Positions 1 through 40,746 of a stretch of 64,000 nucleotides of DNA are shown piece by piece. Every line of letters begins with the position of its first letter. Position 1 is the first letter of the stretch. The position numbers and the translations under genes were made by a program. Source of the DNA: a virus (lineage: Duplodnaviria; Caudoviricetes); the IMG/VR virus record IMGVR_UViG_3300021959_007005. One strand, given 5' to 3'. Under the pieces are notes generated by a model that was given only the letters and a program-made list of their open reading frames with translations, did no database searches and was not told where the DNA came from.

Positions 1-1051
1 TAGTACGTAGTTCGTCTATAATTTTATCACAGTCTGTAATAGTACCAATCGGTCCACGAGTACCGTCAAACTTGGCTTGACATGTCTGATGATGCCATAT
101 AGTATCTGTTTGTTGTTCAATGTGTAGGAAGAACCAGTTAACACTACACTGCCAGTTACGGAATTTAGCAAAGTCCAAGAATGTACTTTTACTCCAGCAA
201 CCATCACTACCACATGTTTCCATTGTACGACTACCACAACATGGACGTCCTAGTTCTCTAGCAAACTTTTTCTCTGGGGGTTTCTCAGTTGCCATCATCA
301 TTACACCCGCTGGTGGTTTCTTTACTGGAGCAGGCTTAGGCTTGTCGTTTAGTGCGGCGTTTTTATTTGCCCAGTAGTCTTTCATCCACTGTAGTTGCTC
401 ATCTGTGTAGCGGTGTGCATATGAGTTTTTACTATCCTCATGCTCGCCAATCATTCGTGGCACATATCCAATACCATCACGCTCAAACTGTATACACAAG
501 TCTTTACACTCGTCCCAGTACTCTGCGTGAAACATTACATTAATCTTAATTGGAAATTTATGCTCAGTAAAATAATATATATTATCTATTACTTGCTTTT
601 TAAGATTGGCATGTGCTTCTGCATGGTAACTAATAGTCATAAATCCATAATTAGCAATAACATTATCTGCCATCTTCTTGCCAAATGCGCCGTTACTGGT
701 AATAGTAAGGGTCATTTTAAAGTCGTCAGCATATTTCTCATTGTATGTATCACGTAACCACTGACCAAATGCTAAAAAGTTTGGATTATTTGTGGGCTCT
801 CCACCAGTAAAGTTTAAATTAATACGCTTATTCTTTTTGTGTGGCATCATTAGTTGTGCGTAATCAAATACAAACTCTCCAGTCTTTTGCAGTGTAGCTA
901 AGTCAGCATGTTTACTAAAGTTATCATGACGGTGTGGGGGACAATATGTACAATCATAGTTACAGCGTCTACCTACATCCCAAGTAACAGTTAAGTTGTC
1001 ACCATCCAGTAAATTAATAGCTGTGAAATCTTTTTGTTCTAATTCTAGCAT
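1..1051 (-). CDS. Radical SAM protein with C-terminal Cys-rich SPASM/Twitch-like region, partial (runs off the left edge; absent from the ORF track)
   Basis: Manual translation from ATG at 1051 (TGATG overlap with the upstream stop): MLELEQKDF...WDVGRRCNYDCTYCPP...FTGGEPT...ITSNG...ISYHAE...PCCGSRTMETC...QCSVNWFFLHI...HHQTC. The frame is open to position 2 (350 codons). Confidence 0.9.
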   Translation of the reverse strand, partial: MLELEQKDFTAINLLDGDNLTVTWDVGRRCNYDCTYCPPHRHDNFSKHADLATLQKTGEFVFDYAQLMMPHKKNKRINLNFTGGEPTNNPNFLAFGQWLRDTYNEKYADDFKMTLTITSNGAFGKKMADNVIANYGFMTISYHAEAHANLKKQVIDNIYYFTEHKFPIKINVMFHAEYWDECKDLCIQFERDGIGYVPRMIGEHEDSKNSYAHRYTDEQLQWMKDYWANKNAALNDKPKPAPVKKPPAGVMMMATEKPPEKKFARELGRPCCGSRTMETCGSDGCWSKSTFLDFAKFRNWQCSVNWFFLHIEQQTDTIWHHQTCQAKFDGTRGPIGTITDCDKIIDELRT

Positions 1052-2367
1052 CAGCGTGGGGTCTCCAAAAATTCAATTATATCAGCATGTAGATAATCAT
1101 TATAAGTTTGATTTCTACTTTTGTCAAATGCTGTTACTTCTTTGAGCATGTTAAGTCTATGTTGTTCAGTAACAGTCATCTCCAGATGCTGCTGTAAAAA
1201 TGTAATAATGTTTTGTGTATTAACAAAAAATTTAGTCTCTTCGTTGGGAATTATAGCACTTAGTTGTTGTATCAGATCTTGTTTTATATGTTTGGGCAAG
1301 AACTTTATATTAATGTACTTATTCTCTGGCCAAAGTAGGTCTATCCAAAAACTCCAACTTAGTTGAGATTTACCGTAGACTGTGTGCAACTGGTAATGGT
1401 AATTGTAAAGATCCACTAAGTGGTGTACGTTTAGTGCAGTTACTACTGGATTAAAATTCACTGTGCCCGGGCGAGTGTTTTTACTGAGATAGTTTTCCAC
1501 GCTGTGTGTTAAACGATCCCATGTCCATGGATAACGCATGTAATGATAATTGTTCCCAATACTGTCTATGCTTGCATTCAGTCTCAGTTCTTTAAATTGA
1601 TTTAATTTATTCATCAGCTTGTCAGTAAACTTTGTACAATTACTATGAAACTCTAATACAATATTCTTAGCACAGTCACGCTCAATAGCAGTGTCAAGGA
1701 ATTGTAAAAAACCACCACTGAGTGTTGTTTCGCCACCAGTGGCTTTAATCTGTGTTAATTCGTGAATATTATCTAATATATCTTGCCATTGATGATTGTC
1801 TTGATCAAAATTATGCACAGCATACTCATTACCTGGGTCACTGTTTAATGCCTGTGTAAAAGGATGATCACTGGCATAATCAAAGTCCTGCATACCAACA
1901 GTGTCGATGTCATTTTCTAAAAAATATCTATAATCTATTCTAAGTTTGTTGCTTAACCCTGGCATACATATACGACATCTTAAATTACAATTCTCTCCGA
2001 AACTAAAATCAATTACTTGTAATACGGGGTCAGTTAATAACTGGGAGTCGTGATATTTTATTTCACTTAGCCGATAACTACTTGCTCCACGATCTTCCAT
2101 ACGCCAACATACATCACAAGCACTGTGTCGCTCACCTGCTAACATGGTTGCTCGTAACTCAGACATCTCTTCACCGTGAAATATTTCTTTAGCAGTGGGA
2201 GTAGTGGTTTTAAGTTTAGTTACCAAGCCCATTGGATCAGGTGTTTCAGGACGTATCATATTACAACACGGTGTGGCATTGGTAATACTTTGAGAATTCC
2301 ATTCTTTAAGAGCTAGCTGTGTGAACGGATGCCAGCAAAATGTATTTTGTTTACTTGGATGCACCAA
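1051..2367 (-). CDS. Radical SAM protein, N-terminal Twitch-like module (type A)
   Basis: FCWHPF..TPCC..CDVCW, then CNLRCRIC, ATGGET, RYPWTW and C-terminal FDKSR. Confidence 0.9.
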   Translation of the reverse strand: MVHPSKQNTFCWHPFTQLALKEWNSQSITNATPCCNMIRPETPDPMGLVTKLKTTTPTAKEIFHGEEMSELRATMLAGERHSACDVCWRMEDRGASSYRLSEIKYHDSQLLTDPVLQVIDFSFGENCNLRCRICMPGLSNKLRIDYRYFLENDIDTVGMQDFDYASDHPFTQALNSDPGNEYAVHNFDQDNHQWQDILDNIHELTQIKATGGETTLSGGFLQFLDTAIERDCAKNIVLEFHSNCTKFTDKLMNKLNQFKELRLNASIDSIGNNYHYMRYPWTWDRLTHSVENYLSKNTRPGTVNFNPVVTALNVHHLVDLYNYHYQLHTVYGKSQLSWSFWIDLLWPENKYINIKFLPKHIKQDLIQQLSAIIPNEETKFFVNTQNIITFLQQHLEMTVTEQHRLNMLKEVTAFDKSRNQTYNDYLHADIIEFLETPR

Positions 2368-3214
2368 CTACTCCCAATGCCCATGCTCTTTCTGCACACC
2401 AAAAACAACCCCCTTGTGAATTGTCGGTGATATCATTACAGGTCACCAATGGTGTAATACCATGTTCATATTCAGTATAGTCTTTGAATGGTTCTGACTC
2501 CATAAATTTAAACAAGTTTTTGTCACCTTCGCAACTTCTGGTGGTGTTGAATAAGTCCATCCAGTTATTGCGTATGTATTCATTAATAATAAAGTCTTTG
2601 GTTACTAGTTTCCAGGGATGACATCCTACAAAACCATTCTGCCGCTGATACTGCGGGCAGTATGTGGCAAATTCCAATTTTAACTGATCCCAACTTCTAT
2701 CCCATGGTTTTTCTCTGTGTGTTAGTTGTGAGTCAGATGGATTATTGGTTATAAAGTTGTACACTGCATCTAAGTTATAGGTATGTACAGCAAATTGATT
2801 AAAACTTCTTGTACATATTCTGTCACCAGTGGTGCCGATTTGTTCAATAACTCCTATAGCACCATCTTCTATCTCAGGCGGAATAAAATTTTGTACTCTT
2901 TGCATGATCACATCAGGAAACATTTCACGTAATTTATTGTATACTTCTACACTAATAGGGGCTGCCCATGGTCTATTGTTCCATACTCTCACATTGGTAA
3001 GCACTGTGATTGCTGTATTGTTTCCGTGTTCTAGTATAAGTTTACACAGTGTTGCAGTACCAACTGCACTGTCTGCTCCTCCACTTAGATTTACACCTAT
3101 ATTAGCCCAAGCAGGATCATATGGATAAAGTAATCCATTTACATCATGAAGTACACTTGGGTCTACACCAAACTTCTCGTAACTGCTATTGCTTAATTTA
3201 ATATTAAATGTCAT
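2351..3214 (-). CDS. QueC-like PP-loop ATP pyrophosphatase
   Basis: N-terminal LSGGADSA PP-loop; C-terminal TRSCEG...C...CFWCAER metal-binding motif as in the QueC family. Confidence 0.7.
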   Translation of the reverse strand: MTFNIKLSNSSYEKFGVDPSVLHDVNGLLYPYDPAWANIGVNLSGGADSAVGTATLCKLILEHGNNTAITVLTNVRVWNNRPWAAPISVEVYNKLREMFPDVIMQRVQNFIPPEIEDGAIGVIEQIGTTGDRICTRSFNQFAVHTYNLDAVYNFITNNPSDSQLTHREKPWDRSWDQLKLEFATYCPQYQRQNGFVGCHPWKLVTKDFIINEYIRNNWMDLFNTTRSCEGDKNLFKFMESEPFKDYTEYEHGITPLVTCNDITDNSQGGCFWCAERAWALGVVGASK

Positions 3215-4607
3215 TGAATATATCTTTCATTTCTGGGAATGTTGCACTGAAACTGTTGTTGCGTTGACGATCACATAAACTTAAAAATTCTTTCATTTCA
3301 GGCAAGCGTACACTCCAGTCTTCACTTTCCATAAACTGTATCATACCTTCAAGTCGTTTAATACCGTAGTCAGCGGTTCGCCATTCTTCGTAAGTAACTT
3401 TGCCCTTGTGCCAACTGGGTATACTTAATTCCCAGTTTTCTTCCCACCATGGATAAAACTCCTTGTATTTTTTACGACACTCAGCTTTAAACCAGGCTGG
3501 TAGTACTTTAACATTTAAGTGTGCTGGATGATATACAAAGTGATAGTTTATACCACCTGCGCCAAACGGCCACATGTTTATTTTATTAAACCGTTGCTCT
3601 AGTTTCCAACGGATAAAGTCTGGTAGATAATAGATGTTTAGAGCTTGCACTGCACATGCAACTGTAATTTCAACATTATTACTTGTTTCTTTATCAAGTA
3701 TATGAAATACTTCTTCTGTGCGTTTCCATTTACTAGGATATCGAATATAATCATTCATTTCGTGTATACTATCTACACTATAATGGAATCTTACCAGTTT
3801 AAATTCTTTCCACAAGTCAAATAAATCCTCCCTCCATTCAACTCCATTTGAGTTATAACGTAGTTCTAAATTCTTTGCATGCCCTTGCTTAATACATTCT
3901 TCAAGTATCTCATAGTGTTCATCAATAATTAAACTCTCACCGCCAGCAAAATATATCTGTTGCATATTTGGAATCTGTTCGTAAAACTGTTCCCAGAATA
4001 CTGGATTATGTTTATGCCAGTTGTAACTGCTTCCATTAATACTGCCTTTGTCACGCCATTGTGTATTGCTTTTCAAACTTTCATTTTGTATTTGAGGATT
4101 TATTGCTTTCCAGTCTTTAATCCAACCTGATGAATCGTGTGGACTACACATAACACAAGCTAGTTGACACTTTGTGCCAAAGCGTAAATCAATGTATGCC
4201 AAGTTAGGAGGCACTTCTCCGTTCTCTTGTGTATTTTGTATGAGACTTTCTAGATCTGTGCGTTGCATCCAATATGCGGTCTCCCACTGACGTTTACTAC
4301 GATGCCCTGCTGCTTCTTCCTTGTAACATTTTACACAACTAGGAGGTTGTTCGCCGTTGAGCATTTGCTTGCGAACGTTCTTCATGTATGTACTGTTCCA
4401 CGAACTTTGAAAATCAGTTATGTTTAAATTGTTGGGTTTGCCTTCATCGTCTTTAAGTACTCCAACCATACCCCCGTGTTCTTTATCATTAGTGGCGCCA
4501 ACACTACTAGCATTTGCAGTACAACATACTCGCATACTGCCATCTGGCCTTGTACTAAGATGCACCCAGGGCAGTATACAAAATGTGTCACTTGGTATTT
4601 TTGTCAT
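3204..4607 (-). CDS. Radical SAM protein, N-terminal Twitch-like module (type A)
   Basis: FCILPW..VCC..CVKCY; CQLACVMC; FAGGES; RYPSKW; CDRQR. Confidence 0.92.
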   Translation of the reverse strand: MTKIPSDTFCILPWVHLSTRPDGSMRVCCTANASSVGATNDKEHGGMVGVLKDDEGKPNNLNITDFQSSWNSTYMKNVRKQMLNGEQPPSCVKCYKEEAAGHRSKRQWETAYWMQRTDLESLIQNTQENGEVPPNLAYIDLRFGTKCQLACVMCSPHDSSGWIKDWKAINPQIQNESLKSNTQWRDKGSINGSSYNWHKHNPVFWEQFYEQIPNMQQIYFAGGESLIIDEHYEILEECIKQGHAKNLELRYNSNGVEWREDLFDLWKEFKLVRFHYSVDSIHEMNDYIRYPSKWKRTEEVFHILDKETSNNVEITVACAVQALNIYYLPDFIRWKLEQRFNKINMWPFGAGGINYHFVYHPAHLNVKVLPAWFKAECRKKYKEFYPWWEENWELSIPSWHKGKVTYEEWRTADYGIKRLEGMIQFMESEDWSVRLPEMKEFLSLCDRQRNNSFSATFPEMKDIFNDI

Positions 4608-5965
4608 TGTATTATCTCATAAAAGTTTGGAACAATATCTGTAATATTTTGTCCTCTGTGTTGGTCTAGTTGTTTTGTGTACTTGTGTAATTTTACAGCA
4701 AGTTCGGGCAGAGCTGTGTCATTGTACCAGTAACGCCACGAATTGTTTTGTTTATCAAAGCCCAATACTTCAATGTAAAGTGCAATATTAACAATTCTTT
4801 TTTTAAGTTTATCTAACTCTCTCCAATGATCTTGTACAGTTTGTGTTTGTGTATCCACGGTGTCTATTATACTGTTTAAATATTTTGTCACTGGCTGATA
4901 TACGTCTGTGTACCATGTGTACTTAGCAGATTTATTTAATTGTTTTGCTGACAAATAATCGGGATCATACAATAGATCATAACTCAGTGTAAATCTACTA
5001 CCCAGCTGTTGTTGGATCCATTTATCTGTATACCACCGTGTTAGGCGATCAATGTGCATTATGTTATATATTTGTATTACTGGAGTTAAATTTATTTGTA
5101 CATTTTTAATAGCAAGTAATTTATCAATGTTATGTTCAATTGTTACCCAGTCACTGGGATATCTAATATAATTGTTTACATCGTCGATGCCATCTATACT
5201 GCCGTTTATTTCTACACTGTCAAACTTGTGCATCAACTCTAAAAATCTCTGTTGTATATTAGTGAGATTACTGGTTAGTTTTAATCTAATGTTTTTAGCC
5301 AAGTTATTTTGCACAAGTTTATCAACAAGTTCATACATTTCATCGTGTAGTGTAGGTTCCCCTCCTACAAATGTAATCTCTTCAATCTCTGCAATGCCAT
5401 CATTGATACTACTCCACAGTTTAGCAGTATCCCACTCGGCAACATCATAGTGCTTGTAGTGTGTAGGAAGTCCCATAGATGCAAATTGTTTTTGCTCTCG
5501 AACTATCTGACTGCTAAAGTGAGGCCAGCACATACGACATTTTAAGTTACACAAGTTACTCAGTCTGATATCATAGTAGCGTATGCGTGGGTTATCAATG
5601 ATGTCTTCCCACTGATCATTGATTTTTGTGTGAGGCTTGTGTAGCCATTTTTGATTTTCTTTGCGCCGCTTACTGGGCAATTCTTCTTTTTTATGTTTGC
5701 TCCAGTCACTACTGAAAATCTCTTCTTCACGCCAACATGTCGCACACTCTGGCAATTGTTGATCTTGTTCCCATACTTTGTGTCTCAGTTCGCGATAATG
5801 TTTACTGTTCCATATCTCGTCAATGCTGTGAGTGTTAACGTTATAAGGCACACCATTGTCATCTAGTATAACATCGTGCTTGCTTACTTTGCAACACAAG
5901 CGACAGGTGCCTTCTGTTGTGGTTGCTAAATGTATAAAAGGAAGAATACAAAAGTTCTTGTGCAT
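4604..5965 (-). CDS. Radical SAM protein, N-terminal Twitch-like module (type A)
   Basis: FCILPF..LCC..CATCW; CNLKCRMC; FVGGEP; RYPSDW; LDQHR. Confidence 0.92.
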   Translation of the reverse strand: MHKNFCILPFIHLATTTEGTCRLCCKVSKHDVILDDNGVPYNVNTHSIDEIWNSKHYRELRHKVWEQDQQLPECATCWREEEIFSSDWSKHKKEELPSKRRKENQKWLHKPHTKINDQWEDIIDNPRIRYYDIRLSNLCNLKCRMCWPHFSSQIVREQKQFASMGLPTHYKHYDVAEWDTAKLWSSINDGIAEIEEITFVGGEPTLHDEMYELVDKLVQNNLAKNIRLKLTSNLTNIQQRFLELMHKFDSVEINGSIDGIDDVNNYIRYPSDWVTIEHNIDKLLAIKNVQINLTPVIQIYNIMHIDRLTRWYTDKWIQQQLGSRFTLSYDLLYDPDYLSAKQLNKSAKYTWYTDVYQPVTKYLNSIIDTVDTQTQTVQDHWRELDKLKKRIVNIALYIEVLGFDKQNNSWRYWYNDTALPELAVKLHKYTKQLDQHRGQNITDIVPNFYEIIQ

Positions 5966-5970
5966 GTGTA

Positions 5971-6003
5971 TATTTATTAACGTAGTACTTAATAAGATAA
6001 ATA
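5971..6003. promoter_or_regulatory. Back-to-back T4-like late promoter motifs
   Basis: ATAAATA on the minus strand (5977-5971) lies 5 nt before ATG 5965; ATAAATA on the plus strand (5997-6003) lies 5 nt before ATG 6009. Confidence 0.7.
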
Positions 6004-6008
6004 TTAGA

Positions 6009-7277
6009 ATGGAACATCCTACTTATTGTAGCTTTCCGTTTGAAAGCATTGCTCCTAAAAGCTGGGTTGATGGTCGTCCACATCGTGTAACACCTTGTTG
6101 TAACATGAAGTCGGACAATACTGACGATCCAATGGGAGTAAAACCTCTAATAGACGCTGGTGCTAGTTTAGCAGATATTTTTGCTAGCCCACAGTTTGAT
6201 CAACTACGTTTAGACTTACTGAGTGGCATACGCAACCCAGCATGTGAGTATTGTTGGCGGCTGGAAAGTCGAACAGGACACAGCCCACGTATTACTACTA
6301 TTGAACCGCTAAAACAAAGTACAGCTCCAGCTACTAAAAAGTTAATGAAGTTAGATACTATGATAGACGAAAGTTGTAACCTCCAGTGTAGAATGTGTGC
6401 GCCCAGTGTTAGCAATAGTCTACGTAAAGACTACAATCAGATACTAGAACTTGACTTACCGTTACCTGAATATTATAACATAAAGCAGACAGAAAGTCAA
6501 GCTGATCCCAGTGGAACACAAGTATTTTTTGGACCTAATACAGAATATCAAAAAGAGATAATTGATATAGGAGACGAAATACGTGAGCTAAAGTTTACTG
6601 GCGGAGAGCCAACTGTTAGTAAAACATTTTGGAGTATCGTTAATAATTTAAACTATCCAGAAAATGTAAAAATACATTTAACAACCAATGCTACTAAATT
6701 TAATCATTTATTTTTAGACAGTATGAAGAAGTTCGGTAAACGCCACTTTACACTAAGCATAGACGGTACCCGTAGTACATATGAATACATACGATATCCC
6801 TTTAACTGGCGAAAGCTGGAAAATAATATAAACAAACTTTGTGAAACACAAAATCCAGACAGTACTGAGATACATATTTGTAGTGTGTTAACCACATATA
6901 ATATGTTAAACATACGTAACCTTATTGATTGGATTATACAACACAATTGGTATAGTGAACACAAGATTACATGGAAGTGTATCCCTGATCCACATCCAGT
7001 AGATAGTTGTTTAGATGTTAAGTGGGCAAGTACAGAACTATTGGACATAGTATATCAAACTATGTGTGCTGTAGAGTGTGATGAATATGTACAGGGTGGT
7101 GTACAAAAAACTATAAAGTATTTAGAATGGTGTTTGAATCAAACACATGATCCTGATGTACTAACGGAACGTAGAGCTAGGCTAAAACAAGACACACTAA
7201 CACTTGATATTGTACGTAAACAAAACTATGATGAAATGTTACAGCCACAAGTAGCTGATTTTATTCTGCATATTTGA
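6009..7277 (+). CDS. Radical SAM protein, N-terminal Twitch-like module (type A), inverted orientation
   Basis: Start moved to ATG 6009 (MEHPTYC) because the longer ORF overlaps the neighbouring gene; YCSFPF..PCC..CEYCW; CNLQCRMC; FTGGEP; RYPFNW; LDIVR. Confidence 0.9.
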   Translation: MEHPTYCSFPFESIAPKSWVDGRPHRVTPCCNMKSDNTDDPMGVKPLIDAGASLADIFASPQFDQLRLDLLSGIRNPACEYCWRLESRTGHSPRITTIEPLKQSTAPATKKLMKLDTMIDESCNLQCRMCAPSVSNSLRKDYNQILELDLPLPEYYNIKQTESQADPSGTQVFFGPNTEYQKEIIDIGDEIRELKFTGGEPTVSKTFWSIVNNLNYPENVKIHLTTNATKFNHLFLDSMKKFGKRHFTLSIDGTRSTYEYIRYPFNWRKLENNINKLCETQNPDSTEIHICSVLTTYNMLNIRNLIDWIIQHNWYSEHKITWKCIPDPHPVDSCLDVKWASTELLDIVYQTMCAVECDEYVQGGVQKTIKYLEWCLNQTHDPDVLTERRARLKQDTLTLDIVRKQNYDEMLQPQVADFILHI

Positions 7278-8295
7278 TTTCGTTTTGATATGCACGATTT
7301 TTGGCACAAGTCCGTATACAACGACTTATGTGCAAATTATGTCTTGGATCAAAACTATCGCTAAGTGTTTGTGCATAGTAATCAGTTGCAAGTATTTGAT
7401 CAATTGAGTGTGTGTTTAAATTATTCCAACCTTGCGTAAACCCACTATACTTGTCATTGATACCTTCTTTATTTTTAAAACTACTGTCCCATAAAAAACA
7501 ACAAGGCCATAGTGTACTGTTGGCGGCTACAAATATTTCTTTATCGTGATAAAATTTGCAACTTATACTGTCCAAAATTGATTCGATTTCTTCTTGACTT
7601 TTGTTTTCTTGTTGTATAAACTTATCTAATTGTTTTACTTCTTTTACTTTACTGTGTTCTTTTGCGCCAGTGGTTGTTATAGTCTTTTCTACTTTATTAT
7701 TCTTTTTGCCAATTTGTGCAACCCAGTTGTGATAACTATTACGCATTCCAGTACGAGTAGCAAACTTAAAATTCATGCTCTTCGCTAATGCACGAGCTTG
7801 TTCTAGTTCGTGTTCATTATGATCAAACACAATGTATATCCAAGTTGCTTCGCCACCGGCATCGGCGTATGCTTGCATATTACGTTTAATAATTTTATAA
7901 TTGGTGTTTACACGATATATATGATTGGTTTCAGTGCCGTCAACACAGAAGTGTACATCAACTCCTAACTGTGCTAATCGTGCCCACCAGTCTGCACTGT
8001 TGCGTCCACCATTGGTACTGTACTGTATGTGCGCTCCGTGATCAACTAAATGTTGTGTAATTTCTAAACATTCAGGATTAACAATTGGATCTCCCAGTAC
8101 TCCACAAAACTTAAAACGTTTACCTGCAATGTGTCTGCGATCAGGAAACCAAGTTTTAATTTGTTGTAGTGTTAAGTTTTGTGGTTTTAGTATATCTAAG
8201 TTTTGTGTTCTAGCACATCCTGGACATGCGGCATTACAATCGCTGCTTATTTCTAATTCAATTCGTTCAATTGTATCTATATTAATTAAGTACAT
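7261..8295 (-). CDS. Radical SAM protein with C-terminal Twitch module (type B)
   Basis: CNAACPGC; FCGVLGDP; STNGG; C-terminal SCK..IFV..LWPCC..CIRTC. Confidence 0.9.
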   Translation of the reverse strand: MYLINIDTIERIELEISSDCNAACPGCARTQNLDILKPQNLTLQQIKTWFPDRRHIAGKRFKFCGVLGDPIVNPECLEITQHLVDHGAHIQYSTNGGRNSADWWARLAQLGVDVHFCVDGTETNHIYRVNTNYKIIKRNMQAYADAGGEATWIYIVFDHNEHELEQARALAKSMNFKFATRTGMRNSYHNWVAQIGKKNNKVEKTITTTGAKEHSKVKEVKQLDKFIQQENKSQEEIESILDSISCKFYHDKEIFVAANSTLWPCCFLWDSSFKNKEGINDKYSGFTQGWNNLNTHSIDQILATDYYAQTLSDSFDPRHNLHISRCIRTCAKNRAYQNEIKYAE

Positions 8296-8299
8296 ACAT

Positions 8300-8314
8300 T
8301 ATTTATGATAAATA
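8300..8314. promoter_or_regulatory. Near-palindromic bidirectional late promoter TATTTAT-G-ATAAATA
   Basis: ATAAATA reads outward on both strands: 4 nt before ATG 8295 (-) and 5 nt before ATG 8320 (+). Confidence 0.7.
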
Positions 8315-8319
8315 CTAGT

Positions 8320-12718: not shown

Positions 12719-12741
12719 AGGTTACTTCTCCTATACACTTC

Positions 12742-12770
12742 ATTATACAGTATGATAGTTTAGATGTCAA
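12742..12770 (-). promoter_or_regulatory. Consensus sigma70-type promoter
   Basis: TTGACA (12770-12765), 17 nt spacer, TATAAT (12747-12742), upstream of the glycosyltransferase. Confidence 0.85.
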
Positions 12771-13867: not shown

Positions 13868-14022
13868 TGTAATTCACCTTGTTGTGGTAGTTGACCTCTA
13901 TATTCAACTCCAGTCTCTTCATCTATTAATCGCCATTTGGTTGGACATTTAGTAACTACTTTGAGTTCTACTGCTATGTCAATGGCAGGTACTACGGTAC
14001 CATCTTGTAGTGTTCTATTCAA
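13849..14022 (-). CDS. Small hypothetical protein (~57 aa; ORF track extends it to 14058)
   Basis: TTG at 14022 follows a purine-rich Shine-Dalgarno-like run and overlaps both neighbours; KCPTKWRLIDEETG core. Confidence 0.55.
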   Translation of the reverse strand: MNRTLQDGTVVPAIDIAVELKVVTKCPTKWRLIDEETGVEYRGQLPQQGELHWQKIK

Positions 14023-15289: not shown

Positions 15290-15290
15290 A

Positions 15291-20972: not shown

Positions 20973-20973
20973 T

Positions 20974-23825: not shown

Positions 23826-23857
23826 AATTATAAAGATCCTCTATATATGTTAAATAC

Positions 23858-23871
23858 TATTTATATAAATA
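23858..23871. promoter_or_regulatory. Perfect palindrome TATTTATATAAATA, equal to two overlapping exact T4 late promoters (TATAAATA)
   Basis: TATAAATA reads outward on both strands between divergent genes. Confidence 0.75.
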
Positions 23872-23894
23872 AGTATGTAGTTAATGGATACCCA

Positions 23895-27751: not shown

Positions 27752-27771
27752 GTAGTTAACAAAAGTAAACT

Positions 27772-33298: not shown

Positions 33299-34685
33299 AT
33301 CTACACCACCAGTCATACAACTCAGGGTCAGCACGATAAATGTCTTTTAATCTAAACTGTTCTTGTCTAATTTGATCTAACCTATCTTGATAACCTTTAC
33401 CGTTCTTAAATTTTTGCTCATGTGTGTCTGGAAATTGTTCAGCAAATGTCGGACGATTTTTCATTTCACTAAGTGTATTTACAAGAGTCATTTGTCGATG
33501 TGTAGCACGTGGTTCCATATACGCAAGTAATTGATCAATTTTACGATCTAATATATGCCTTGGCCATGCAAACGGACTCATTACAATGTCAGGATGAAAT
33601 GCAAACATAATTTTAGTTTCCATACTTACATCTAATTCTAAACTTAAATCAAATAAGTCACGTAAACTAAACATACCTGGACCAGTAATAGTTAAATCAA
33701 AACGCATTTTTTCTTTGCCGCCAGGTAGTGCTAATCCTTGCTTAAAGTTATCAAGCCATTCTTCCCATACAATGCCTTTGCGAATAAACTCTACAATATC
33801 TCCTGTACCATCAATGCTTGCACACATTAGCCAATCTTTAAACTGTGGTAAGTAATCATACAAGTTTTTTCCCTTGAAGTCAATCCTTGATAAATTACTA
33901 TTATAACGCAAGTAACAATTTTTCGCACTGCCGTTACGGGTCATTTCTTCTAGTGCCCACCAATGCATATCATACATTAGTGGCTCGCCGCCTACCCAAT
34001 ATATTTCTTCTACAATACCATCACTGATAGCTTGTTTAAATTCAGGCTCAGCTACATGCTTTTGGAAGTTATTCATTTTCTTTTTAACTTCAGGAATCAT
34101 AAATGGTTGGTGTTCAGGGCTCCATAAATCATGTTTCTTTTTTTCAGCTTCCCATGCACTGCTCAATTGCTCGCCGCACATTCGACATTTAAAGTTACAC
34201 AAATTACTATAACGATAGTCAAATGATATAGTAGGCATAGTTGTATAGCCATCATCATCTGTATTATCAAATGCTTCTTGTATTTTGTCTTTGAATAAGA
34301 CACCAGTGAACCATTTACGATATGAACTTAACGACAATGTATCATCATTGCATACATCACATTGACTAATACGCTCTCCTGCCATTAGTTTTTTTCGTAT
34401 GTCACGCATGTATTCACTGTTCCAATGTTCTTCTAGTGTAAGTGGATTAAACTTATCAGCGTCTGTCTCACTTTCACGTATTTCGCCATACTTTTCGTCA
34501 TTGGTTGCATCTATATATTGTTTTTGAAAGGCGTGTTCTTCTCTACTGGCACAACATAATCTGCGCTCTCCTTGTGGACTAATATAGGTGTGTGTCCACG
34601 GTGCCATACAAAACGTTTTGTTTTCACTATCTGCCGCACAGCTTCCATCGTTATTCCATTTTGGTTTAATTTTTGTCAATATCAT
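33291..34685 (-). CDS. Radical SAM protein, N-terminal Twitch-like module (type A)
   Basis: FCMAPW..LCC..CDVCN; CNFKCRMC; WVGGEP; RKGIVW; LDQIR. Confidence 0.92.
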   Translation of the reverse strand: MILTKIKPKWNNDGSCAADSENKTFCMAPWTHTYISPQGERRLCCASREEHAFQKQYIDATNDEKYGEIRESETDADKFNPLTLEEHWNSEYMRDIRKKLMAGERISQCDVCNDDTLSLSSYRKWFTGVLFKDKIQEAFDNTDDDGYTTMPTISFDYRYSNLCNFKCRMCGEQLSSAWEAEKKKHDLWSPEHQPFMIPEVKKKMNNFQKHVAEPEFKQAISDGIVEEIYWVGGEPLMYDMHWWALEEMTRNGSAKNCYLRYNSNLSRIDFKGKNLYDYLPQFKDWLMCASIDGTGDIVEFIRKGIVWEEWLDNFKQGLALPGGKEKMRFDLTITGPGMFSLRDLFDLSLELDVSMETKIMFAFHPDIVMSPFAWPRHILDRKIDQLLAYMEPRATHRQMTLVNTLSEMKNRPTFAEQFPDTHEQKFKNGKGYQDRLDQIRQEQFRLKDIYRADPELYDWWCRYE

Positions 34686-35883
34686 ATTCCATAAACTCAG
34701 GCCATAGTTTTTTCCAACTGTTATTTCTTCTTATATCTAATTTAGATAGAAATTTTAACCCGTTTCTAAAATGCCATAACTCTGGCTCTGCACTATTCAT
34801 ATGTTCTAAGCAAGCATCTACTACTTTTCTTCTTTCATCAGCTATATCTAAATTATCTCTGTACTCTGAAAGTTCTGTAGTATACATATCTTTGATAGGT
34901 TTGGGTAAATTAACAGATGAAAATCGTTTAGGCTCTACTGCCATATTATATGTAAACTGCTGACTTCCCTTAGGCGCACGCCAATGAAATGGGTCCACAT
35001 GCATCTGATCAACAAGATAATCTAAGAATTTTGGTATATTCCTTATGCTTAAATTTGTTATTGTAATTTGTGGAAGTACATGTACTTCTGGCATTTCGTT
35101 TTTTATTGTGTGCCAGTTTTTTACAATCTTCTCCCAATTACTTCCGTAGCGTTGATACTCACCAATGTCGTCGACTGCATCGATACTTGCTCTTATACTA
35201 ACCCATTTAAATTGTTTCCATAGGTCTAGTATATCTATTTTTTTGTATTTTAGTGTTGACAAGTTAGTGTTATACTCAAGTTTTATATTAGACGCCAATC
35301 CTCGGCGCACTACTTCATTTAATAATGTGTAATGATATGGTGTCATCAAAGGCTCACCGCCTGCAAAGTAAATTACTTCTAGTTTGTTATCAACAATTGT
35401 TAAAATGTCTTGCTCTGTATTATTGGATAGTGTAATAAACTTACTGGCACCCTCTTTTACTTGATATTTTAGTGCAGATCCGTCTTCATACCAACTACTA
35501 CTAAGAGCATGCCCACACATTACACAAGCCATATTACACATATTACTACTTCGAATATCTAAATATCTTAATGCAAAGTCAGGTGTTGTATTTTCGGTTA
35601 TTAACTCGCCGTAATCATTATTCAACCGTGTTCTTAGACTGTTCCCATTTCCAAATTTTTCTTGATTATAACAAAACTTACAAGCATCTTGTAATTTACC
35701 ATCGAGAAGATCTTGTCTAAAATTACTCGCAGTATCACTTCGCCAAGCATCTTGCACAGACATTTCATTTGTATTTCCATAGTTAATACTTTGTGCAGTA
35801 CAACAAGGATTTACTTGACCGTCTGGGTGTATGTATAAGTGTACCCAAGGCGCAGCGCAAATTACTCCATTATCTTCTTTCAA
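34666..35883 (-). CDS. Radical SAM protein, N-terminal Twitch-like module (type A)
   Basis: ICAAPW..NPCC..CKFCY; CNMACVMC; FAGGEP; RYGSNW; LDIRR. Confidence 0.92.
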   Translation of the reverse strand: MKEDNGVICAAPWVHLYIHPDGQVNPCCTAQSINYGNTNEMSVQDAWRSDTASNFRQDLLDGKLQDACKFCYNQEKFGNGNSLRTRLNNDYGELITENTTPDFALRYLDIRSSNMCNMACVMCGHALSSSWYEDGSALKYQVKEGASKFITLSNNTEQDILTIVDNKLEVIYFAGGEPLMTPYHYTLLNEVVRRGLASNIKLEYNTNLSTLKYKKIDILDLWKQFKWVSIRASIDAVDDIGEYQRYGSNWEKIVKNWHTIKNEMPEVHVLPQITITNLSIRNIPKFLDYLVDQMHVDPFHWRAPKGSQQFTYNMAVEPKRFSSVNLPKPIKDMYTTELSEYRDNLDIADERRKVVDACLEHMNSAEPELWHFRNGLKFLSKLDIRRNNSWKKLWPEFMEYDIDKN

Positions 35884-37412
35884 ACTTCAACTCCACCTAA
35901 CGCATCCGTTTTTGTATCCCATCCGCCTATTGCTTCGTGTTCGTCATCACCACCTGTATATTCTTCAGTAGTGGCTGGATCACCAGCTCTATCATTTACA
36001 AAGATAGTTTCTTTATTTTCGATTTGTTTACGAGTTGGCACAATTGCATCAATACTTTCAAACCATTCAGCAAATGGACCTGGAAAAGTTTCTACAAAGT
36101 TTTTATTTCTACGCACATCATATTGGGCAAAGAATGCTTTAAAATCGTTGTATAGTTTAGGCATATCTGCTGTGTTTTTGTGAGGAGTTTTTACAATGTC
36201 CAAATAGTCTATAAGTCGCTGTACACTAGCACGTTCTCCATCATTTAACATTTGTTGAGGGCGTTCACTGTTAAACCATAACTGTAGCTTATCTTTATAG
36301 TGACGCTTAATTTCTACTGGAATAATTGCACAACTTTGAAAACTAGGAAAACGTAAAATGTTTAATGTCATAGTAGGCGCACGACGACCATAAGTTTCAC
36401 GCAAGTCTAACATTTCGTCCATAAACTCTGTAATAGTAGTTAAGCACAATGAATTGATTGTCATCATCATATGTAATTTAGATACATTTGATTCTTTAAG
36501 AACACGATGAATACTACTCATCCATAAATCATAATCTAGTCCATCACGTATATATTCTGCTTGTGGCTTTGTCGCTTCCATAGATGTGTAGATTTCAAAG
36601 TTAGGAACATGCCAAGACTTTTCAATTAACTTGTCTAGTACCTTAGGTGTTTGTGGCGACAAGTTACTATTAATAGCAAATCTCATTTGTCTGCCTCTAT
36701 AAGGATTCTGCTCGAACCAATCGAACAATTTCCACGTGCCTTTATGCATAATAGGCTCGCCGCCGGTAATACGAATTTCTTCAAGGTTGTCTGCTAATCC
36801 GTTCTCCCACCATTTATGAAATGCTTGTATGTATGGGTTGTCTTCTTGTTTCTTTGTTGCTGGTTCTGCCCAAGGAGCAGTATCTGAGAAATGACCACGA
36901 CCGTCACTTTGAATATTTTGATAAGCACCATAGTCGTTGATATCTTTAACCCAAGCTGTACTAAATGCTGGATTACAGTATGAACATTTTAAGTTACAAG
37001 CACGATCAAAAGAAATTTCAAGTGTACGCAACATAACATTGTCGTCCCACGGCATCTCTGTACTTTTGGTTATATCTTCGTCTTTGAAAATTTCAGTTTT
37101 AAACACACGATCACTGATGTGATCCTTACCCATGTCTTCAACTTTCCAACAGTATTCACACTCAGCAGGTCGTTCGCCTTTGAGCATCATTTTTCGCATT
37201 TTTTTCTTATGAGATGTATTATGAATAGCAGTATGATCTTTTTCAAGTTCATCCAATGGGATCCAATGTCCTGGTGGGTGATGGCAACTAGTAGTTTGTC
37301 CATGACCTAACCATATAGTAGCATTATACCACTTAGCCGCACAATAACTAGTACTAATACTATCAATCATACGTTCTTTATATGCCTGTAATGATTCGCT
37401 GTGTTTACGCAT
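35880..37412 (-). CDS. Radical SAM protein, N-terminal Twitch variant (CH instead of CC), acidic C-terminal tail
   Basis: YCAAKW..SCHHP..CEYCW; CNLKCSYC; ITGGEP; YDVRR; ~55-aa tail rich in D/E/G. Confidence 0.92.
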   Translation of the reverse strand: MRKHSESLQAYKERMIDSISTSYCAAKWYNATIWLGHGQTTSCHHPPGHWIPLDELEKDHTAIHNTSHKKKMRKMMLKGERPAECEYCWKVEDMGKDHISDRVFKTEIFKDEDITKSTEMPWDDNVMLRTLEISFDRACNLKCSYCNPAFSTAWVKDINDYGAYQNIQSDGRGHFSDTAPWAEPATKKQEDNPYIQAFHKWWENGLADNLEEIRITGGEPIMHKGTWKLFDWFEQNPYRGRQMRFAINSNLSPQTPKVLDKLIEKSWHVPNFEIYTSMEATKPQAEYIRDGLDYDLWMSSIHRVLKESNVSKLHMMMTINSLCLTTITEFMDEMLDLRETYGRRAPTMTLNILRFPSFQSCAIIPVEIKRHYKDKLQLWFNSERPQQMLNDGERASVQRLIDYLDIVKTPHKNTADMPKLYNDFKAFFAQYDVRRNKNFVETFPGPFAEWFESIDAIVPTRKQIENKETIFVNDRAGDPATTEEYTGGDDEHEAIGGWDTKTDALGGVEV

Positions 37413-37454
37413 ATGTTTACTTGTCCTTCATTCTATAATACTTCTATTTAATTT

Positions 37455-38993
37455 CTAAGATGATGTATAACAATCATTCCACCAACCACTAAGCTCTGGA
37501 AATACTTCAATAAAGTTTGTATTTCTTCTATCATCAATTTGATTAAAATATTCCCAAAACTGTTTCTGCCGAAGTTGCAATTCATCTTCACTAATCGATT
37601 CTGCTCCCGACTTAATCCATGCAATGTCCCTTTTAACTTTTTCAATTTCATGATCTAAAAATCCATGAAAAGTTGTATCATAATCTTCTTTAGCTCGATT
37701 ACTTTCCATAAATTCTACAGCATCTTCCATATACTTCATTACCTCAGGTATATAATGTATGTTCTGTGCAGACATCCATGTAGGCTGCCTAAGATAAGGT
37801 ATATCAAAATATATACGTTGTCTCTGATATCTCACAAATGGACCTCGGTGTTTTCCTGTTTCATCAATAGGAGAATCATTTACAATATTTTGATTATCAA
37901 ATCCAAACTCTACTCGAAGATCTAATATCATTTGTAAGTATTGTTGTATTCTCGGAATACTTAGTAAGTTAAATGTGTTAATAAAAGTGACACTAGTTCC
38001 TGTAGTCTCAGATAATATGCGCTTTGTATTATTTAACACGACATCATAATCCATACCAGTACGAATATATTCAGCTTGTTCTCCTACACTATCAAAACTA
38101 ACAAACAAATTAAAATGTTTGATAGCAGGTGCAACAAAAAAGTTATTATCAGTATAAGGATTAATTTTATTTTTATCTTCCCAGATCCTTGTTGTTTCTA
38201 TCTCTTGAAGATGTTCAACAAATTTATCAAAAAGTTTAGGTTGAGGAGGACACATATTACTAGTAATACTAATTTCAATATCTTGATTAGGATTGTCGTT
38301 TACATATTTTAATACTTTGAATGTATTTTTATCCATGAGAGGTTCGCCACCTGTCATACGAAATATCTTCAAATCTTTGTATAGGTCAGGCCACCACTTC
38401 CAAAATGCTTCCACATATGGGTTTTCTTTTGCAGCGCCTTTAATCGGCATCAGTCCTATTTTGTCTAAATGTTCTTTATCATTATGCACAAAGTCTGTTA
38501 AGTGGAATGCTCCATGATCGTCAATCTCTTTTTCCCATTCAGTACTCAAATGCGGACTACAATATGTACACTTGAAGTTACATGCTTGATTAAAATTTAC
38601 CTCTACGTAACGTGGATTAATGTTTTCATCCCAACTGCCTTCCAATACCTCATTCCAGCCGTCAGTTCCTACCCATTCTTCCCCACTTCGATAATGTCTA
38701 TCACTCAGATCCCCTTGATCTTCTAATTTCCAACAGTAACTACATCCTGCTGGCCTTTTACCTTCAAGCATTTCTTTACGCTGTAATGCTTTTTCTTGAG
38801 TATTGTGTAATGCCTTAGGATTATTTTTTAACTCACTAAGCGGTATTTTATGCGTAGGTGGATGATAACAGCTCTGAGTCAGTCCTTGCGGTAAGTGCAG
38901 ACTAACTTGTAGCCACTTAGCCATACACATGCTGGGACTAATATCATTTAGCTTTTCTTTAGTACGTTGTGCATTAGAAAGATAATCTTTCAT
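37455..38993 (-). CDS. Radical SAM protein, N-terminal Twitch variant (CYH)
   Basis: MCMAKW..SCYHP..CSYCW; CNFKCTYC; MTGGEP; IDDRR. Confidence 0.92.
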   Translation of the reverse strand: MKDYLSNAQRTKEKLNDISPSMCMAKWLQVSLHLPQGLTQSCYHPPTHKIPLSELKNNPKALHNTQEKALQRKEMLEGKRPAGCSYCWKLEDQGDLSDRHYRSGEEWVGTDGWNEVLEGSWDENINPRYVEVNFNQACNFKCTYCSPHLSTEWEKEIDDHGAFHLTDFVHNDKEHLDKIGLMPIKGAAKENPYVEAFWKWWPDLYKDLKIFRMTGGEPLMDKNTFKVLKYVNDNPNQDIEISITSNMCPPQPKLFDKFVEHLQEIETTRIWEDKNKINPYTDNNFFVAPAIKHFNLFVSFDSVGEQAEYIRTGMDYDVVLNNTKRILSETTGTSVTFINTFNLLSIPRIQQYLQMILDLRVEFGFDNQNIVNDSPIDETGKHRGPFVRYQRQRIYFDIPYLRQPTWMSAQNIHYIPEVMKYMEDAVEFMESNRAKEDYDTTFHGFLDHEIEKVKRDIAWIKSGAESISEDELQLRQKQFWEYFNQIDDRRNTNFIEVFPELSGWWNDCYTSS

Positions 38994-40175
38994 TTAATGT
39001 CCTTTAATATTTTATTTTTTGGCAGTCTTTCCATACTGCACTTAGTTCAGGGAAAGTTTTAACAAAACTTGTGTTACGTCTGGAATCTAGTTGTTTAAAG
39101 TAATTATAAAATTGAAACTTTCTATTTTTTGCATCGCCTAATTTAATCTTAGAATTTTTAATAATTGAAATGTTTCTTTTTACTTTAGCTATTTCAAACT
39201 GTGTAAACCCTAATCCTTGCTCCGTCTCTTGGTTTTGCTGCATAAACTTAACACAATCGTCTAGAATATCTAGCATATCTGGATAAAATACAGCAAAGTC
39301 TGCATTCATCCAAATTGGTTCTCTGAGTAGTGGAATATCAAACCAAATTCGACATCGATCTTTACTTTCACTAAATTTCATTTTAAGTTCTAGTATATAC
39401 TCTAAAAAATGTTTGAATCCAGTGATACTTAAAAAATTGAAAGTGTTAATAAAAGTTATCTCACTGTTTTTTGTATTACGTAAAAACTTATGTACGTTAT
39501 CTTGAAACACTTGCCAATCTAATCCATTACGTATATATTCCGCTTGTTTTCCCACACTATCTATACTTGCAAAAAGCATAAAGTTTTTGATTCTGGGAAC
39601 GTTTAACATGACTCCCTGATTGCCTTCTTCATCGCTTGGTGGTGCACCTAAGCACTTCCATTCTAGATTTTCATCTGGTTTAAACCAAATAAGTGTATAC
39701 AAAAAATCTCCATGTTCGGTTCTGTTTCTACTGTCAAATTCTAATCCAATATCTTCTAGTGTTAAACGCTGTTTTTTTGGATCAATAGTAGGATCGTCTA
39801 CAGTAGAGTCATCTAATACAATAGCCCTTTGCCAATTCTGCCAATTAATATCTGGATCAGATTCAGCAAAATAAGTAACTTCTTTTAAAATTCCACGATC
39901 AATCCAGTCATTATAAACTTCTTGTGTAATATCATTTTCGATATTTTTAATATTAGTTATAAACTGATCAAAAAGTTTAGGTTGAGGAGGACACATGTTA
40001 CTAGTAATACTAAGCTCAAGTAATTGATTAGGATTCTTGTTTACATAATCTAATACTTTGAATGTATTTTTGTCCATAAGGGGCTCACCGCCTGTCATGC
40101 GAAATACTTTAAGATCACTATATAGGTCAGGCCACCACTTCCAAAATGCTTCCACATATGGGTTTTCTTTTGCAG
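38380..40175. repeat. Identical nucleotide tracts shared by the two adjacent radical SAM paralogs
   Basis: 55 nt identical at 38380-38434 and 40121-40175; 30 nt identical at 38226-38255 and 39967-39996. Confidence 0.85.
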
Positions 40176-40746
40176 TGCTTTTAATGGGCATTAGTCCTTT
40201 ATCAACAAGTGAATCAATATCATTATGTTTATTATAGCCTATATTAACTGGGCCGAATTTGTCAATCTCTTTTTCCCATTCAGTACTTAGATGAGGACTA
40301 CAGTAGGTACATTTAAAATTACAACTTTGGTTAAAGTTTACTTCCACATAATGAGGATTAATGTTTTCATCCCAACTGCCTTCTAAAACTTTATCAAATC
40401 CAGATTGCGCCCAGCCTTCTCCACTTCGATAATGCCTATCACTCAAATGTCCTTGATCTTCAATCTTCCAGCAATAACTGCATCCCGTGGGTCGTTTTCC
40501 CTCCCACATTTTTTTTCTTTCAAGAACTTTATGTACAGTATTGTGAAGTGCTCGTGGATTATTTTCAAGCTCAGATAATGGGATATTGTGTACAGGAGGA
40601 TGATAACAACTTTGTGTAAGTCCAGCGGGTAAATGTATACTAACTTGTAGCCACTTAGCTAAACAAAAACTGGTACTAACAGAGGACAATTGTTGTTTGA
40701 TTTCATCTTCGCCGTCAAGATTACGTGAAATTGAAAATTTAGCCAT
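39004..40746 (-). CDS. Radical SAM protein, N-terminal Twitch variant (CYH) with a ~115-aa insertion
   Basis: FCLAKW..SCYHP..CSYCW; CNFKCTYC; MTGGEP; LDSRR; close paralog of 37455..38993. Confidence 0.92.
   Translation of the reverse strand: MAKFSISRNLDGEDEIKQQLSSVSTSFCLAKWLQVSIHLPAGLTQSCYHPPVHNIPLSELENNPRALHNTVHKVLERKKMWEGKRPTGCSYCWKIEDQGHLSDRHYRSGEGWAQSGFDKVLEGSWDENINPHYVEVNFNQSCNFKCTYCSPHLSTEWEKEIDKFGPVNIGYNKHNDIDSLVDKGLMPIKSTAKENPYVEAFWKWWPDLYSDLKVFRMTGGEPLMDKNTFKVLDYVNKNPNQLLELSITSNMCPPQPKLFDQFITNIKNIENDITQEVYNDWIDRGILKEVTYFAESDPDINWQNWQRAIVLDDSTVDDPTIDPKKQRLTLEDIGLEFDSRNRTEHGDFLYTLIWFKPDENLEWKCLGAPPSDEEGNQGVMLNVPRIKNFMLFASIDSVGKQAEYIRNGLDWQVFQDNVHKFLRNTKNSEITFINTFNFLSITGFKHFLEYILELKMKFSESKDRCRIWFDIPLLREPIWMNADFAVFYPDMLDILDDCVKFMQQNQETEQGLGFTQFEIAKVKRNISIIKNSKIKLGDAKNRKFQFYNYFKQLDSRRNTSFVKTFPELSAVWKDCQKIKY

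Follow-up and report, generated by a model that had tools for sequence, protein, structure and literature searches.

A lineage-wide array of radical SAM genes in a jumbo phage and its possible role in carbohydrate tailoring

The Campylobacter phages CP220 and CPt10 carry 11-12 clustered radical S-adenosylmethionine (SAM) genes (2010, PMC2853527), and the marine T4-like environmental viral genome (EVG) TARA_ERS488813_N000010 carries 12 (2017, PMC5332604). No function was assigned to either set, and phages with a dozen such genes were noted as highly unusual. Here, we analyze an array of radical SAM genes in a 64,000-nucleotide (nt) stretch of DNA, hereafter the window, from IMG/VR virus record IMGVR_UViG_3300021959_007005 (Duplodnaviria; Caudoviricetes). 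The window is the reverse strand of 78821-142820 in IMG/VR contig G000 (197,947 bp; CheckV completeness 55%). We read the locus as a phage-encoded carbohydrate-tailoring island that acts on a sugar or glycan, which the virion may display, and give this reading about an even chance of being right. The number of radical SAM genes in the window, 18, is not singular, as it stands at the upper end of a lineage-wide, uncharacterised phage module.

The radical SAM array and its enzyme classes

A motif scan of positions 1-40746 found CxxxCxxC in exactly 18 open reading frames (ORFs), none with an internal stop. These are the same 18 that the original prediction had listed, and in a profile search all of them matched PF04055 at E <= 2e-3. 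Twelve reach or exceed the Pfam gathering cut-off of 29.5 bits; the other six fall short of it at 18.9-28.5 bits (E 2e-6 to 2e-3), but the full-length model NF033640 is passed by five of them with 224-313 bits. From cysteine content we estimate that the motif would occur by chance about 0.006 times per 400-amino-acid (aa) ORF. The first run, at 2-10705, has eight of the ORFs; a single one follows at 20974-22851, and the other nine, at 27772-40746, include eight consecutive genes (29778-40746). The two runs had been placed correctly in the original prediction, but the array is cut by the window edge and both runs are interrupted by an ORF of another kind (2351-3214 in the first, 28907-29836 in the second). 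The ORF at 2-1051 reaches 400 aa beyond the window start and is followed by three more radical SAM genes in G000. The contig thus holds 21 radical SAM genes within 47 kb, all 21 with CxxxCxxC, while its remaining 150 kb contain only four further motif-bearing ORFs (>=100 aa).

Thirteen window genes, scoring 213-424 bits, pass the curated cut-off (170 bits) of NF033640 (NCBIfam N_Twi_rSAM, 'twitch domain-containing radical SAM protein'). In these N-terminal-twitch (N-twitch) genes the SPASM Pfam match lies at residues ~6-113, ahead of the PF04055 core. Invariant across the 13 paralogs are C7, C25, C67 and C70 (R07 numbering; individual radical SAM genes carry R numbers), which precede C121/C125/C128, and likewise CxxxCxxC, GGE, SxD, YxR and DxxR (alignment A1). 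R21, the 14th N-twitch gene, lies outside the window and scores 134 bits with NF033640, under the cut-off. In four shorter enzymes, R09, R11, R13 and R19, the core comes first and is followed by a C-terminal C-x18-CC...CxxxC module (SPASM E 8e-5 to 6e-3), which is the N-twitch Cys pattern in the classical position. Together, the 21 genes comprise 14 N-twitch enzymes, four with the C-terminal module, one probably B12-dependent enzyme, and R18 and R20, which are of other types.

Auxiliary-cluster cysteines had been predicted and are indeed present, but in 13 of the 18 enzymes they are N-terminal to the core, unlike the C-terminal placing in BtrN and anSME; the assignment of the N-twitch enzymes to the classical Twitch/SPASM type has therefore to be given up. 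GGE or GDP, claimed for all, occurs in 17 of the 18 window enzymes and neither occurs in the B12 enzyme. The radical SAM genes of the window and the ORF within the first run are as follows, with ratios of nonsynonymous to synonymous substitution rates (dN/dS) where available:

2-1051, minus strand: R18; PF04055 30.2 bits; CNYDCTYC at residue 30, GGE, Cys-rich C-terminus; full ORF at G000 141770-142972
1051-2367, minus strand: R17, N-twitch; NF033640 243 bits; Cys and other motifs invariant
2351-3214, minus strand: 287-aa protein within the first run; zero matches in Pfam, NCBIfam and PHROGs
3204-4607, minus strand: R16, N-twitch; NF033640 424 bits; orthologue in L057 76% identical
4604-5965, minus strand: R15, N-twitch; NF033640 312 bits; SPASM at residues 6-78, PF04055 at 135-286
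5856-7277, plus strand: R14, N-twitch; NF033640 213 bits, match from residue 55; TTG-started ORF
7261-8295, minus strand: R13, short, with C-terminal C-x18-CC...CxxxC; PF04055 46.8 bits; paralog of R09, R11 and R19
8305-9672, plus strand: R12, N-twitch; NF033640 224 bits
9623-10705, minus strand: R11, short, with C-terminal twitch-like module; PF04055 37.9 bits; orthologue in L057 70% identical
20974-22851, plus strand: probable B12-binding radical SAM enzyme (class B methylase type); PF04055 63.8 bits; PF02310 E 1.1e-5; dN/dS 0.06
27772-28923, minus strand: R09, short, with C-terminal twitch-like module; PF04055 32.2 bits; SPASM 5.6e-4, residues 279-362; dN/dS 0.20
29778-40746, minus strand: R08 to R01, consecutive N-twitch genes; NF033640 302-414 bits each; dN/dS 0.05-0.18; R08 at 29778-30992, R07 at 30955-32139, R06 at 32126-33334, R05 at 33291-34685, R04 at 34666-35883, R03 at 35880-37412, R02 at 37455-38993 and R01 at 39004-40746

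The first ~50 residues of R14 overlap the adjoining gene and lie outside the family match, so that they are probably untranslated and translation probably starts near residue 52. The PF02310 match of the B12 enzyme (25.7 bits) is below the cut-off of 32.1, and its score with the nearest family model, NF033712 (KedN5 family), is 253 bits versus a cut-off of 700, hence it is no KedN5 equivalog. In the long paralogs R01-R03 (35880-40746), the second Cys of the CC pair is His or Tyr (CH/CY), and insertions of differing length follow the SN strand, with an acidic insert of ~115 aa in R01.

Paralogs are only 22-32% identical, except for R01 and R02 with 73% across their first 262 residues, and are thus more distant from each other than from their orthologues in other phages (45-85% identity). 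Relative to L187, a metagenomic relative with 92% DNA identity, dN/dS is 0.05-0.20 for R01-R09 and the B12 enzyme. Deep paralog divergence, closer orthologues and low dN/dS together indicate that the genes are old, individually conserved and under purifying selection. The original prediction that they are maintained rather than decaying is borne out by these ten genes, the absence of stops and the invariant motifs, and the neutral evolution that it had named as the outcome that would speak against it was not observed. The possibility that the paralogs are passengers, redundant or in decay and with no distinct function, could draw on two genes that are absent from L187 despite the close DNA identity and on the many accessory copies that have no close orthologue. 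It is contradicted by the dN/dS values for ten genes, and since no copy has stops or lost motifs and core lineages are conserved across the phage clade, we consider it very improbable. The deep divergence of lineages that are conserved across phages rather fits distinct substrates or positions; this part of the earlier proposal stands, whereas an 'assembly line' can at present only be inferred.

Grouping the viral N-twitch genes of 80 related viral loci at >=38% identity separated a core from an accessory set. Three subfamilies form the core: R07/R16-like genes occur in 80/80 loci, R01-R03-like genes in 71/80 and R05-like genes in 55/80. Outside of these are many singletons, including most first-run genes of the source phage, and gene content varies even among relatives at 92% DNA identity. 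L187 lacks the gene at 26447-27751, of a family (cluster 4) that is introduced below, and a 309-aa gene (28907-29836); the differing window stretches are 26443-29775 and 40746-40752. It also carries an additional nucleotidyltransferase-cupin gene just before R01, of which a 51%-identical homologue is located distant from the array in our contig (G000 183777-184544). Genes are thus gained and lost within the island even between very close relatives.

The N-twitch family is large, with 5,674 proteins at E <= 1e-10 and more than 555 matches in IMG/VR. In each of the 40 related IMG/VR contigs tested, 2-16 N-twitch copies exceed the cut-off (7, 15 and 16 in near-complete genomes), and G003, a complete genome of 346,856 bp, has 21 CxxxCxxC ORFs that are more scattered than in the source phage. 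Counted per genome, the paralogs do not make the array exceptional for its lineage. The statement of the original prediction that it knew of no characterised phage pathway with this many radical SAM genes is in line with our literature searches, which found no characterised pathway for such arrays and no paper that deals with N-terminal-twitch enzymes or with what such arrays do.

The window encodes gp25 and a gp6-like baseplate wedge (1180 aa) with 35-40% identity (tblastn) to homologues in Atu_ph07, SCTP-2 and PA5oct. These matches to jumbo myophages identify the source as a jumbo phage of roughly 350 kb. A megablast search with 29000-41000 against isolated phages gave zero matches. Seawater and estuary metagenomes with near-identical DNA come from at least 16 studies dated 2015 to 2024. 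Contigs of four metatranscriptome libraries (four studies) cover the array; they are silent on strand and level and may include DNA carry-over, and are therefore compatible with array transcription as a weak hint but no proof. Genes for IscU, IscA, flavodoxin and 2Fe-2S ferredoxin were not found in the 198-kb contig, which says little since the contig is 55% complete.

Conserved gene order and sugar-enzyme partners

We clustered the ORFs of the 80 related loci into families, referred to by cluster numbers. Related loci share a fixed order on a single strand: tail fibre, clusters 6, 5, 3, 3 and 2 (the last in one or two copies), radical SAM genes with clusters 4 and 10 interspersed, cluster 7, and a carbamoyltransferase. 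The window keeps this order and is syntenic with G003 from baseplate to carbamoyltransferase. The structural genes and cluster members of the window are:

47594-62735, minus strand: 3745-aa giant protein, gp6-like wedge and gp25; CBM_5_12 and GPW_gp25 matches; the array is co-directional and directly downstream
46029-47548, minus strand: fibre-like structural genes heading the block; PHROG virion structural/tail-fibre matches; T4-late-like TATAAATA at 47570-47577
44464-44811, minus strand: cluster 5, 115-aa protein (~105 aa in relatives); single copy in 48/80 loci; a Cys-/Gly-rich core is absent from the alignment
42687-44460, minus strand: cluster 3 paralog pair, weakly GT8/glycogenin-like; in 59/80 loci, usually paired
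40752-41732, minus strand: cluster 2, GT-A-like (nucleotide-diphospho-sugar transferase fold); in 70/80 loci; adjoins the array upstream
24407-27751, plus strand: cluster 4 paralogs at 24407-25495 and 26447-27751 with gene 25470-26450 between them; cluster 4 has 98 members in 51/80 loci
11981-12718, minus strand: second cluster 2 copy, GT-A-like, 35% identical to 40752-41732

The IDGDN motif of cluster 2 (DxD-like; D65, D67) is invariant, and the AlphaFold2 (AF2) model, with a predicted local distance difference test (pLDDT) score of 90.6, has TarP, SunS and RmlT as top Foldseek matches (E 3e-4 to 2e-3) and aligns with B4GALNT1 over 143 residues in VIA (Z 10.8, root-mean-square deviation 3.1). 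The protein at 40752-41732 is thus predicted to have the fold and DxD metal site of a GT-A enzyme, a fold that is also that of nucleotidyltransferases. Clusters 3 and 4 were tried as relatives of cluster 2 and rejected, with hhalign probabilities of 2% and 0.4%. SGNH/DUF6071 signals are seen in cluster 10. Nothing usable was obtained for clusters 4, 5, 6 and 7 in Pfam, PHROGs and profile-versus-PDB searches; the cluster 4 profile found only unannotated matches among 5.8 billion proteins, and cluster 7 had no usable match in the Atlas.

From 63704 to 27772, over 36 kb, all genes run in one direction and no gap exceeds 64 nt. The motif TATAAATA is strongly depleted in the window, with three copies found versus 14 expected by chance, and one of the three lies 22 nt upstream of the gene heading the fibre-to-array block. 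Position behind the baseplate and fibre genes, co-directionality, near absence of gaps and the late-promoter-like motifs suggest that the product is most likely late and displayed on the virion, the weakest step of our reading. The other two copies of TATAAATA overlap on opposite strands at 23858-23871, a site described as the gap of 21 nt that separates the divergent genes 22863-23825 and 23847-24410, and look like back-to-back late promoters.

Some further observations concern the structural genes. Fibre proteins of relatives have a Peptidase_G2 intramolecular-chaperone domain. The 3745-aa protein (47594-58831), encoded between baseplate wedge and fibre-like genes, has a CBM_5_12 repeat match; its counterpart in G003 (160730-175297, ~4,855 aa) is 25% identical over a local stretch of 549 residues only. 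The complete phage order from fibre to carbamoyltransferase is also found on L120 and L122 (148 and 183 kb), which are binned in a Haliscomenobacter sp. metagenome-assembled genome (MAG; Saprospiraceae) and are probably jumbo-phage contigs binned together with their host, a possible host lead.

Alternatively, the enzymes could modify virion proteins, such as the 3745-aa fibre or small upstream-encoded proteins, instead of sugars. They would then be leader-independent maturases like anSME or PoyD that introduce epimerised residues, cross-links or formylglycine-like oxidations. In favour of this, the fibre and baseplate genes immediately precede the array and share its strand, one bacterial homologue is located in a nonribosomal peptide synthetase (NRPS)-polyketide synthase (PKS) cluster, and the best VIA match of R07 is anSME (Z 11.8, tied with CteB and SkfB). 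The R07 matches are, however, non-discriminating: the AF2 model (pLDDT 89) is about equally close to anSME, CteB, BlsE, SkfB, DesII, viperin and MoaA in Foldseek and VIA (Z 10.2-11.8), and as these alignments hardly reach the N-terminal domain, they inform on the generic core alone. A phmmer search of R07 against PDB sequences gave zero matches. An RRE/PqqD-like domain was not found in any of the 18 ORFs (Pfam, NCBIfam), and models of maturases for ribosomally made peptides with post-translational modifications (RiPPs) all scored far below their cut-offs. We saw no small Cys- or Gly-rich precursor and found no ORFs with a shared N-terminal tag, although a precursor may have gone unrecognised. 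Moreover, the persistent partners of the array are sugar enzymes and GT-A-like proteins, not proteases or transporters. Taken together, modification of virion proteins appears rather unlikely.

Between the two radical SAM runs lie genes for a carbamoyltransferase, a kinase, a phosphohexuloisomerase-like SIS protein, Rpe and UGDH, and the same set is found beside the arrays of L004 and L187:

12890-13867, minus strand: carbamoyltransferase, N-terminal (Kae1-like) domain only; PF02543 3.5e-25
14015-14467, minus strand: P-loop kinase-like protein; APS_kinase 3.4e-7, AAA_33
14801-15334, minus strand: SIS-domain sugar-phosphate isomerase; PF01380 3e-12; nearest to 6-phospho-3-hexuloisomerases; solved relatives MJ1247 and YckF
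18384-19013, minus strand: ribulose-phosphate 3-epimerase (Rpe) family; PF00834 1.6e-20; same gene beside the array in L004 and L187
19737-20972, plus strand: UDP-glucose/GDP-mannose dehydrogenase (UGDH) family; PF00984, PF03721; G003 orthologue 60% identical

Full-length carbamoyltransferase homologues (~500 aa, PF16861) occur in 38/80 related loci, and a 614-aa copy is encoded at G000 39740-41584. In L002, a DegT aminotransferase, a nucleoside-diphosphate (NDP)-sugar dehydratase/epimerase and a GFO oxidoreductase adjoin a four-gene array, and an NDP-sugar epimerase is present in 15/80 loci. The sugar context proposed for the array is therefore well founded, both in the window and beside related arrays. 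An earlier suggestion of a 'nucleotidyltransferase-kinase fusion' at 17030-18430 found no support, as PDB sequence searches of this gene and of 15737-16930 gave zero matches. We also dropped the idea that the SIS protein is a GmhA involved in NDP-heptose synthesis, because its solved relatives are phosphohexuloisomerases. An HNH endonuclease gene (15291-15737) is inserted into this run of sugar-enzyme genes, between the SIS isomerase and a 397-aa protein that has no family match.

Just beyond the window start, a 5'-methylthioadenosine/S-adenosylhomocysteine (MTA/SAH) nucleosidase homologue sits between two array genes:

L001:1647-2201, equal to G000 144467-145021, ~1.6-2.2 kb past the window start: MTA/SAH nucleosidase homologue; PF01048 5e-22

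All 38 of its PDB matches are MTA/SAH or aminofutalosine nucleosidases (best 1.4e-11), which places it in this family, and its N-terminus is ~45 residues shorter than in solved MtnN enzymes. MTA/SAH nucleosidases remove 5'-deoxyadenosine, an inhibitory by-product of radical SAM turnover, and the array-borne homologue probably does the same. The outer radical SAM genes are flanked (L001:3626-7469) by genes for a nitroreductase, a cupin Asp/Arg-hydroxylase-like protein and a TauD-family dioxygenase, so that oxygen-dependent tailoring enzymes adjoin oxygen-sensitive ones.

Sugar pathways of secondary metabolism employ BtrN, AprD4, DesII, BlsE, TobZ-type carbamoyltransferases and B12 C-methylases. 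The island might accordingly yield a small molecule or modified nucleotide, for example one that resembles aminoglycoside or nucleoside antibiotics or a sugar donor for DNA hypermodification elsewhere. Enzymes of these types point in this direction, although their family-level matches here are weak, and so do the TauD, cupin hydroxylase and nitroreductase genes in the flanking region. In L187 the nucleotidyltransferase-cupin gene adjoins R01, while the homologue in the source phage is far from the array. In addition, phages that pair radical SAM genes with amidinotransferases have been published (PMC2853527, PMC12801897). The GT-A-like transferases and the fixed place behind the fibre genes, however, suggest a macromolecular acceptor. 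No export, resistance or scaffold-synthase genes were seen in the window, and neither DpdA, a TET-like oxygenase nor another DNA-modifying enzyme is part of the conserved module. A small-molecule or nucleotide product is thus possible, but we consider it unlikely.

What the island may make

A carbohydrate-tailoring island could operate as follows. The [4Fe-4S] cluster bound by CxxxCxxC would cleave SAM, and the resulting 5'-deoxyadenosyl radical would abstract one specific hydrogen from a sugar, which may be a nucleotide-sugar or a residue in a growing glycan. A second, four-Cys cluster (N-terminal in 14 enzymes, C-terminal in four) would accept an electron, and by analogy with BtrN, NeoN, AprD4, DesII and BlsE the outcome may be oxidation, epimerisation, dehydration or decarboxylation. 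C-methyl groups would be supplied by the B12 enzyme. The TobZ-like carbamoyltransferase, UDP-sugar dehydrogenase, epimerase, isomerase and kinase would produce and decorate the sugars, the GT-A-like proteins of clusters 2 and 3 would transfer them, and the MTA/SAH nucleosidase within the array would dispose of the inhibitory 5'-deoxyadenosine. About five radical SAM lineages are common to the phage clade as a core, with the remainder a fast-turning accessory set like that of hypervariable surface-glycan loci. We infer what class of substrate is used, each of the reactions and where the product goes, and display on the virion is the weakest of these steps.

Bacterial homologues with 32-40% identity are found in Bdellovibrionota, Bacteroidota, Elusimicrobia and others, and six contexts were inspected. 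L191 is a Wzt-type polysaccharide locus and L194 a GT2/RmlC locus. L190 is a chromosomal array of seven genes beside a nucleotidyltransferase, and L149 and L193 are stand-alone genes with no sugar genes nearby. On L192, a 311-kb contig of a Cytophagales MAG, a single N-twitch gene has a TauD gene on one side and large NRPS and NRPS-PKS genes on the other, suggesting that some family members may tailor natural products other than sugars.

Bacterial homologues in Wzt-type and GT2 polysaccharide loci, and the presence of TarP, a phage-borne surface-glycan modifier, among the structural matches of cluster 2, might be taken as signs that the glycan machinery remodels the host envelope (O-antigen or capsule) against superinfection and does not act on the virion. 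Yet a membrane-embedded transferase, a flippase and a lipid-carrier enzyme were not found in the window, the block is tied to late structural genes, and a lytic jumbo phage would have little time to profit from surface remodelling. We regard remodelling of the host envelope as quite improbable.

Several points weigh against the carbohydrate-tailoring reading itself. Gene position is the sole ground for virion display, and the window was found to contain neither a proven acceptor nor a gene for a lipid carrier, flippase or polymerase. NF033640 is without a member of known reaction, and the fold of R07 does not reveal a substrate, as the model is equally close to sugar-, nucleotide- and peptide-acting enzymes. 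The GT-A match of cluster 2 is tied with nucleotidyltransferases of the same fold (VIA Z 9.0-9.8). The GT8 signal of cluster 3 is weak, since the profile matches glycogenins alone (E 0.003-0.09, residues 8-115) and Pfam gives none. Clusters 4, 6 and 7 match no recognisable family, yet their linkage to the array is as tight as that of the GT-A-like genes. Finally, the mixed bacterial contexts show that the N-twitch family is tied to sugars often but not always.

It is tempting to go one step further and tentatively propose that the N-twitch enzymes, as a large class of radical enzymes that modify carbohydrates, build a hyper-tailored glycan together with the GT-A-like proteins and the three unplaced families. 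The jumbo phage would carry this glycan on its tail fibres or capsid, and an accessory set that is rapidly exchanged around a conserved core of five enzymes would diversify it. If true, it would be the first virion glycosylation system based on radical SAM enzymes, found in a jumbo-phage lineage that is widespread in marine and fresh waters. Bacterial viruses would then, like giant eukaryotic viruses, make their own exotic surface sugars, with consequences for host recognition and for grazing or immune evasion. Since the phage is common in seawater, any such chemistry would matter ecologically. Radical SAM enzymes carry out some of biology's hardest reactions, and a family of the NF033640 type, thousands strong and without known reaction, is a clear gap. 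About 14 diverged copies, four enzymes of permuted architecture and likely helpers in one operon-like block constitute a compact test set for new chemistry.

Comparison with known systems

The source phage resembles CP220/CPt10 and TARA_ERS488813_N000010 in having a large genome with clustered radical SAM genes, about a dozen in those phages. It differs in the number of these genes, 21, and in its lineage, which has an Atu_ph07/PA5oct-like baseplate. Among isolated phages, R07 matches only Vibrio K566/K567 and Ralstonia RsoM2USA in tblastn, which means that the family has no close relatives in the CP220 genes.

With the NF033640 family, 13 genes have in common the N-terminal four-Cys domain, CxxxCxxC and GGE. 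Whereas the family is a catalogue entry only, the source phage has 13-14 diverged copies, joined by four enzymes with the Cys module at the C-terminus. The sugar-acting Twitch/SPASM enzymes BtrN, NeoN, AprD4, DesII and BlsE likewise combine a core with one auxiliary cluster and have a sugar-nucleotide gene neighbourhood, but the auxiliary domain precedes the core in most copies here, unlike in BtrN-type enzymes. BlsE and DesII are near the top of the R07 structural matches (Z 10.7-11.0), where peptide- and nucleotide-acting enzymes match equally; membership in the BlsE family was not found at the sequence level (TIGR04466 19-24 bits versus a cut-off of 400).

The virion glycosylation systems of chloroviruses and mimiviruses operate without radical SAM enzymes, and the source phage is known from its genes alone. 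It is nevertheless similar to the systems that produce the PBCV-1 (A64R) and mimivirus fibril sugars in having its own sugar-nucleotide enzymes and GT-A transferases (review PMC4691112), and both A64R of PBCV-1 and R699 of mimivirus are among the structural matches of cluster 2.

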